From Octopus sinensis (Eukaryota): 64,000 bases of DNA. Location of the stretch: positions 88,474,001-88,538,000 of the forward strand of contig NC_043001.1 in NCBI RefSeq assembly GCF_006345805.1, written 5' to 3'. This document shows positions 40,006 to 42,487 of this stretch, one piece after another. Made by a program: the position numbers and the translations under genes. The notes below the pieces were generated by a model that did not search any database, was not told the origin of the DNA, and saw only the letters and a program-made list of their open reading frames with translations. Each line of letters starts with the position of its first letter. Position 1 is the stretch's first letter.

Positions 40006-42487
40006 GTCTTCACCTAGGATAAATGAAATCTCAACTGTCTTTTCAATTTTTCTTCTCTCTCTCTCTCTCTCCACACATTCACATAATCTAGCTCACTCAT
40101 AAAACCTAGTCAGCTAGTTTTCAATAACTACTATTTCTGCTGAAGAACTACAATGATATTCTCTCCTGACTTTGTTTTCTGTTTGTTTTAAACTGCATAG
40201 TAAAATAAGTAGGTCATCTAATTTAATTTGGCATTATCAACTGCTTGCTTTACTACTTCAGATCTTCATCTCAATTCCTCTATTAACCTAATTCTATCTA
40301 CTCATCACAAATAATATCTTTCACTTCACACTAATATACATGTAAGTTGAGTCCATGGTCTGCTCTGAGCCAATCTCTATCCCCATGTTGCCATTACTAA
40401 ATCCTTTCAAAATAAATAACTAAATAAGTATGAGTGCTGCAATTATGTATATTCTTAAATATAAAAAAAATGGATATCAAACATGTAAGTCATATGGGAA
40501 ACAGTGCTAGACTATATGGAAGCCTAGTTCAACTTCTACCAGAATAAAACCTTTGCAAGAAGTGCTTGGACTGTAGAATTGTGAATGTGGAGTTACTCAG
40601 TGTTGGGAGGATATAGAAATACTGATCCATATTTGATCCATGAATTAATTATACAAATAACCTGATATTTAAAACCATTGTGACATAGGAAAATTATATA
40701 TTAAATTTTGGTGGCAGGAGTTAACTGCATCATGTTGATTTCAAACATGACATTACAACTTCACTAATTCTTTACCAATCAGTATTTTAGATTAATTTCA
40801 ATTTATAATTAACTTTGATCAAGCATTCATTTTTGTTTACTTTTCCAAATTGTTATCTTCCTATATTCTTCACATTTCAGTTGAAGTTAGTATGAATTAC
40901 TAGGAAGCTGGTTAGTTTTATACAGTTAGAAAAAATTATATGAAAAGCAGTAGAACAAAAAGCAAATTTTAGTGCAATAAATTTTATAAATTAATGCAAG
41001 CAAATCAGACACTTTAAAGATTTTAGATCTTAATTATTGTCAGCATGGCTTGCAAGTCTGGGCCAAGAATGTTTCATGCGAAGAGGTACATTTTTCTTTT
41101 TAGCTAATTTATTTTATTCATAGTTGAAATAGCCAAATATGTTATTTAGTCTGTTATATGCAACTCTCTGTATTCATCTGAGTTTAAAAGAATTCACAAA
41201 TGAAGCAGTGTGATGTAAAACAAATAAGCCATAAGAGAAAGATATAACAAGACCTTTCTCAAAAGAATTGCAAATGTAAGTGAAGTGAATTGGCTTCAAC
41301 TGGGAGTCCAAATCAGTTTACACTCTGAACTTGCTGAGATCTTACCTTTCTCTTTTTTATATTCTCACCTAATGATGATGATTGTTTCAGATTTTTGGTA
41401 CAAGGCCAAGTGTAGTCAATTAAATTGACCCCAACACTAGCCTGGTACTTTGGAGTTGATAAATTCTACCAGTAATAATCATAGTAATGACTTGCAATGG
41501 GTTGCAGTTACTTTTATTATTTCCATCCCAATACTTACCAGGTGCTTATTTTGTCAACCTCCAAAAGTTGAAAGGTAAAATAAACCTTGGTGGTGACCAA
41601 AATCTAAAGTTGTTTTTATTGATTTGTGAGGACTTTTGAGGTTTGAAATTGTCTAAAATCATCAACCTCGCTAAGCAATGCAACTATTTGACTTTAATTC
41701 TTGAAATATCTACATGTTTATAGAACACAAAAGGTGTTCCAATATTTGTATTTAGCACCATACTTGAACTAGGGCTACTATGTCATTATTCATGAAAGCT
41801 TCTTAACAGATGGGTATGTCAAGGATCTTTGAAGATACTAGTGTCTTAGTTCATGTCTACTCAACAGTCAAGGTTTCATAAAACTCCTGTAGAACATGGT
41901 GCTAGCAGCAAGCAGCAAAATGGTAAATTTCACCATGAGAAGCTGGTCATTAAAAGTAACCCCCAACCTTCACCACTCACACACAGACACACATATAGGA
42001 AGTGAAAATCAATCAAATGATACTGTACAATTATGGTATAGTAATTTTCCATTTCCAACAAAAACCTTTAGAAACAGATTCTGAGATTATGTCTTGATGA
42101 AATTCATCACTCTGTCAATTCATATCTTGAAATCATTTTGTAATCATAGACCAGTAGAACTACACTTTAATTGGCTCCTTATAAACATATCATAGCAGAA
42201 TACTGTAAGGTATTGAAGCTGCACTAAAGTTTCAAATAGTTGTTTTCATTTCTCTTCCCTGGGACTTTATTCAAATGATGGTTATTGCTTTCCTCTTCCC
42301 ATTCAATATTAACTATTAAAATCAGATTTCATATAATGCTTGTAGGCTATATGAGCCTGTTACTTTATGGTCTCTCTCTCTCTCGATTTCTGTATAAGGC
42401 CACCTCACTGTTTGTAACTTGTCTTTGTAATGTCCACTTCATCTGAAGGCTCTGTAGCAAAAAAAAGAAAGAAAGAAAGAAAAAAAA

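Follow-up and report, generated by a model that had tools for sequence, protein, structure and literature searches.

A 22-nt sequence in an intron of the CaMKII gene of Octopus sinensis is complementary at 20 of its 22 positions to part of exon A, one of two mutually exclusive exons of this gene. The site lies downstream of the second of these exons, exon B. Its sequence resembles abundant repeats, and exon A has no comparable partner in four other invertebrates. The observation is real, and we believe that the match probably arose by coincidence and serves neither splicing nor editing. We infer that the site is neutral and, more weakly, that it may derive from a repeat. An initial annotation of the window (the whole stretch of 64,000 nt of genomic DNA that was analysed, G000:C5:88474001-88538000) had proposed that the site is an editing-complementary or docking sequence. 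The geometry of that proposal stood, as did the direction of its repeat caveat, and the local statistics bore the match out; nothing in the analysis pointed to a function. The features discussed below are listed in the table.

Features of the CaMKII locus, with positions counted from the first base of the window
Feature	Position	Strand	Remarks
CaMKII mutually exclusive exon A	21658..21730	+	position of human exon 6; isoform annotated P0020
First base of Ser codon, candidate editing site	21707..21707	+	
Predicted local hairpin over exon A donor, rival regulator	21730..21805	+	pair probabilities near 1.0
CaMKII mutually exclusive exon B	37213..37285	+	isoform annotated P0121
Co-linear stretch with inner MITE-like repeat (model positions 113-179 of ~232)	40687..40754	+	weak, 3.9 bits, E ~1
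Possible 7-bp duplex extension with 21706-21712 past 2-nt bulge	40697..40703	+	predicted duplex
22-mer of the intron, 20/22 bases complementary to 21685-21706 in exon A	40705..40726	+	
Next constitutive CaMKII exon	46702..46806	+	tblastn with P0020, 100%

Among solved structures, CaMKII is the best match of both exon A and exon B. The two exons are 73-nt paralogues, identical at 55 of 72 bases, that lie between the same flanking exons and each occur in annotated isoforms; they are thus tandem mutually exclusive exons. The peptide of exon A is identical to annotated Octopus proteins, and isoforms of both the A and the B type are on record. Using P0020 in a tblastn search, the exon preceding A was placed ~2.7 kb before the window. 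In human CAMK2D this exon, too, exists in two mutually exclusive forms (bioRxiv 10.1101/721589), exons 6v1 and 6v2 likewise being variants of one 73-nt kinase exon (bioRxiv 10.1101/721589, PMC9741552). The passages concerned cover the exon pair and make no mention of RNA pairing as its control, and the likeness to the octopus pair is one of description.

Alignment of the site with exon A confirmed the two helices described in the initial annotation. Positions 40705-40717 reproduce the reverse complement of 21694-21706 without error; two mismatches follow, and then 40720-40726 pair with 21685-21691. Both flanking 6-mers are also exact (ATTATA at 40693-40698 with 21709-21714 and TGTTGA at 40733-40738 with 21667-21672). 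The site is located in the 9.4-kb intron that follows exon B, ~19 kb downstream of exon A, a position flanking the exon cluster as expected of a docking element. With exon B upstream of the site and the exon at 46702 downstream, pairing would loop out exon B, as had been proposed. The helix had also been said to end exactly at A21707. It does adjoin this adenosine in the ungapped register, but the lowest-energy duplex continues past it: bases 40704-40705 are bulged, and A21707 pairs with U40702 within a further 7-bp helix. With G-U pairs and the 2-nt bulge, the predicted duplex amounts to 26 bp and -36.8 kcal/mol, a strong complementarity that spans the second exon over a distance of 19 kb. 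Opening of local structure would cost 3.5-4.9 kcal/mol on exon A and 9.3-9.7 kcal/mol on the site. The site was not among the 25 longest of the 1531 pairs reported by an inverted-repeat finder, whose arms of 62-113 nt lie elsewhere, and none of 59 sub-threshold Rfam matches fell on the site or on exon A.

The initial annotation had suggested that an empirical p-value be obtained by shuffling. Over the window, the score of the site was reached by one of 300 shuffled versions of exon A under one scoring and by two of 300 under another, and on the 9.4-kb intron by ~1 of 400, for an overall shuffle p of 0.002-0.007. Within the window exon A has no better antisense partner than the site, which scores 16 with the runner-up at 13, and the site is also its best partner across 264 kb of the gene. 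No place within four mismatches of the exon A 22-mer was found on either strand of 800 kb. At -36.8 kcal/mol the extended duplex outdoes all 39,829 background tiles (best -35.4), the core of the exon having been picked post hoc. Using the site as query, exon A at -32.9 kcal/mol exceeds all 23,868 tiles (best -28.8). Against these values stand two others. Three control exons score 15, compared with 16 for the site, in 24 exon-by-orientation tests over the 264 kb, and matches with the score of the site are expected 340-480 times genome-wide, or 0.004-0.006 times per 64-kb strand, by extrapolation of the score tail observed over 1.6 Mb of strand-bases. The match is therefore notable locally, yet ordinary at the scale of the gene or of a scan, because control exons come within one point of it and hundreds of equal matches are expected.

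Repeats make the 22-nt word itself commoner in the genome. Genome-wide, 81 places resemble it with up to three mismatches, compared with 15 for the reversed control, and four further places, exon A among them, do so with up to two. Of the 81 look-alikes, 30 were retrieved; 12 of these are SINE copies and 5 belong to a second repeat family of ~230 nt with inverted ends, called MITE-like from its shape. One SINE copy on another chromosome (L003) equals the site in matching exon A at 20 of 22 bases. The initial annotation had named frequent equal matches among SINE relics as evidence against its reading; such a match does exist, in this single copy. It had also cautioned that the site faintly resembles the tail of a reverse SINE. 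That caution is upheld for the 22-mer, which is repeat-like, and the SINE origin of the site is unsupported: SINE models built from 10 and from 45 copies did not recognise the site, and its flanks beyond the 22-mer are not SINE-like (p 0.19).

The flanks outside the 22-mer do fit, in register, a 9-copy model of the MITE-like family, a fit equalled by 3 of 1200 random flanks. The copies in this model were taken from unselected background, five of them from a single tandem locus, and it is the one of three repeat profiles tried that was positive. A model of a second MITE subfamily, built from 30 copies, did not recognise the site, 265 of 2500 random flanks doing as well, and no terminal inverted repeats were found around it, the alignment being confined to an inner part of the model. 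Two earlier models were discarded. The first MITE model gave 15.7 bits on the site and was set aside since its copies had been chosen for the 22-mer; the second was contaminated by SINE copies. On this weak similarity, the site may be what is left of the interior of a MITE-like repeat. From the alignments, such a repeat may fit the origin of the site as well as or better than a SINE. DNA searches of the octopus genome with the site region returned only the region itself; searches of this type skip common words. The same intron also holds a decayed, near-full-length MITE-like copy at 43443-43689 on the minus strand (E 9e-9), opposite in orientation to the weak match at the site.

Coincidence would then arise as follows. 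By chance, the reverse complement of a segment of exon A is similar to a G-rich stretch present in two abundant repeat families, so that partners of this kind are commoner than base composition predicts. We regard the site mainly as a warning that, in octopus introns, words resembling repeats make striking antisense matches more frequent.

We also compared the conservation of the two arms. Exon A with its flanks (21625-21900) was found at a share of 1.00 of 28 sampled words in 15 of the 24 listed runs. After subtraction of seven possible-source runs, 8 runs from seven studies and with five organism labels keep this region at 1.00. To judge from these runs, exon A and its flanks are strongly constrained, as RNA structure would predict. 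For the intronic arm, contigs were compared over 40100-41350 at a likeness of at least 80. The site is identical in organisms B and E; both are near-identical throughout and hence uninformative, and B is a possible source. The orthologous contig of organism C is ~86% identical at 40969-41350, opens with 27 non-matching letters immediately ahead of 40790, and loses collinearity 63 bases from the site. In organisms C (95/100 of the run read) and D (82/100) the 22-mer falls in a gap that is not bridged by any contig, and neither was counted as evidence, D giving only chance pieces of 35-40 nt over the whole stretch.

Other invertebrates were examined through 80 JGI metagenome loci, 24 of which contain the exon with its splice sites and five of which carry A and B in the same order. 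From sequence comparison the A/B pair looks ancient. Four of these loci span the complete intron that separates B from the following exon (0.7-5.7 kb), and in none of them does exon A have a significant partner (p 0.07-1.0), the best duplexes reaching -23 to -24 kcal/mol. Nor was conserved pairing with compensatory changes found in any of the four. These loci are distant, and an element confined to coleoids would stay invisible in them. Because the A/B pair is present in loci that lack a partner, it must work there without such an element. The best partners of exon A ~240-260 nt into the intron in L128 (p 0.07) and L145 (p 0.57), as well as a 14-mer beyond the exon cluster in L168, were taken as chance. 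Residues specific to A and to B are retained, with the exons in the same order, in L094, L095, L128, L145 and L168, and partly in L096. In an annelid and in several fishes, gene models run the two exons together.

The proposal that the site is a docking element does not survive these comparisons, since exon B has no competing pairing and the partner is missing from all four loci. Exon B pairs with the site at -19 to -20 kcal/mol, which is within background, compared with -33 to -35 kcal/mol for exon A. When the site was used as query, the next place after exon A reached -22.5 and exon B -19.4. Docking models, as described in the relevant passages of PMC6071210 and PMC4691838, require a selector for each variant. 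According to the same passages, docking sequences of 14-3-3zeta, Dscam exons 4 and 9 and srp lie downstream of the cluster, like the candidate here. The octopus site differs from these systems in that exon B has no selector, the partner is exonic, and neither conservation nor compensatory change was found. A closer working model for the octopus pairing, by analogy the closest, would be the R2-R5 pairing of human ATE1. Both have an exclusive exon pair, a distal arm tens of kb downstream and a second exon that is looped out (described in part of PMC7797038). On the ATE1 model the site would pair with exon A over an ultra-long range, so that exon B is looped out and the A/B ratio shifts; the site may have been a piece of a repeat before this lineage exapted it. 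The position and span are as in ATE1, where ~30 kb separate the arms and the distal one lies in the intron past the second exon (same passages of PMC7797038), and the duplex is predicted to have 26 bp and -36.8 kcal/mol. The site falls in the one intron known for downstream docking elements, and as it is transcribed before the acceptor at 46702, both arms could coexist on A-type nascent RNA. However, one arm is a coding exon, whereas the arms of ATE1 and of Dscam-type systems are intronic. Those of ATE1 are in addition conserved across vertebrates and proven by antisense oligonucleotides and compensatory mutants, again according to the sections of PMC7797038 concerned, unlike the octopus pairing, which is known from predicted complementarity. 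Of the two octopus arms, the exonic one is kept, and the intronic one was read as identical in organisms B and E alone, whose genomes are near-identical throughout and of which B may be the source. The cost of opening local structure, the hundreds of equal matches expected by chance and the missing partner in all four other invertebrates also argue against this reading, which we consider quite improbable.

Intronic sequences that pair with an exon and present an adenosine to ADAR are a general concept, and U-A-G is a preferred ADAR triplet. A21707 stands in this context, either within the predicted duplex, where it would be paired with U40702, or at its terminus, depending on the register; editing would recode Ser to Gly, and Gly occupies this position in exon B and in most solved CaMKII chains. 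The imperfect 20-26 bp exon-intron duplex over a U-A-G adenosine would thus resemble an editing-complementary sequence, from which it differs in that its arm is 19 kb distant and its adenosine is a candidate only. We regard this role for the site as very unlikely. Literature and protein searches found no editing of A21707, and Ser is encoded at this codon in six of eight other invertebrate loci and in two bivalve proteins. The Ser is thus old, and not an octopus-specific change awaiting repair. The local hairpin described below, 20-100 nt away, offers a nearer duplex. Editing clusters of coleoids act over ~200-400 nt in a study that ignored introns (passages of PMC8891338). CaMKII terms were absent from one supplement of PMC8382921 in a term search, and no editing of A21707 was seen in a term search of bioRxiv 2022.09.25.509396; PMC9068888 was likewise consulted. 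Equally remote is the idea that a portion of exon A was copied in inverted orientation into the intron, by templated insertion or from a processed fragment, and that this copy, now decayed, is functionless. Identity of 20/22 to the reverse complement of exon A at 19 kb, unique in the genome by DNA search, is what such a copy would leave, but the identity ends with the 22-mer in the ungapped register, and the flanks past it fit repeat models better than do those of exon A itself.

Taken together, an ATE1-like or editing duplex specific to this lineage is unlikely, and we would give much the same low chance to a combined reading. On that reading an exapted repeat fragment would pair with exon A, loop out B and bring about the Ser-to-Gly change at A21707, by the kinase catalytic loop, with splicing and recoding coupled. 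A functional site would mean that, in a coleoid, isoform choice or recoding of a central memory kinase is steered by exon-intron pairing at long range. It would also give a concrete example of ADAR duplexes that come from introns, a source named as a gap of the field in a passage of PMC8891338. Among the listings and opening lines of abstracts searched, with subscription papers and large supplements outside this scope, none mentions this pairing, the choice of CaMKII exons or CaMKII editing in cephalopods.

The more useful by-product of the analysis is the ancient CaMKII A/B pair itself, with exon A in a strongly conserved block that includes a predicted hairpin at its donor. Positions 21730-21746 are predicted to pair with 21789-21805 (8 bp plus 7 bp) at a probability near 1, covering the donor. 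The hairpin has a z-score of -3.31, reached by 2 of 200 shuffles, while the donor region of exon B is unremarkable (z -1.03), and it sits inside the block at 21625-21900. The same hairpin was not significant in any of seven other invertebrate loci (z -1.37 to +0.91). On structural prediction it would be a better lead than the distant site to what regulates the choice between A and B. The block, which consists of exon A and ~170 nt of downstream intron, is apparently ultraconserved to judge by its sequence. One organism with the block at a share of 1.00 is only ~86% identical elsewhere in the intron. The first six intron bases after exon A (21731-21736) are the same in the window, in L093-L096 and in L128.

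Several other features of the locus were recorded. Weak Rfam matches resembling microRNA precursors occur on both strands at 28856-28988, away from the microsatellite runs matched elsewhere; matches on both strands suggest a long hairpin in the intron between A and B. Two CaMKII association-domain matches (L027 and L029) lie on a separate contig, G000:C8597, the main gene being on C5. Finally, 660 bases past exon A there is a tandem duplication at 22393-23618, with copies of ~580 bases that are 97.5% identical, which is either a recent duplication or an assembly artefact.
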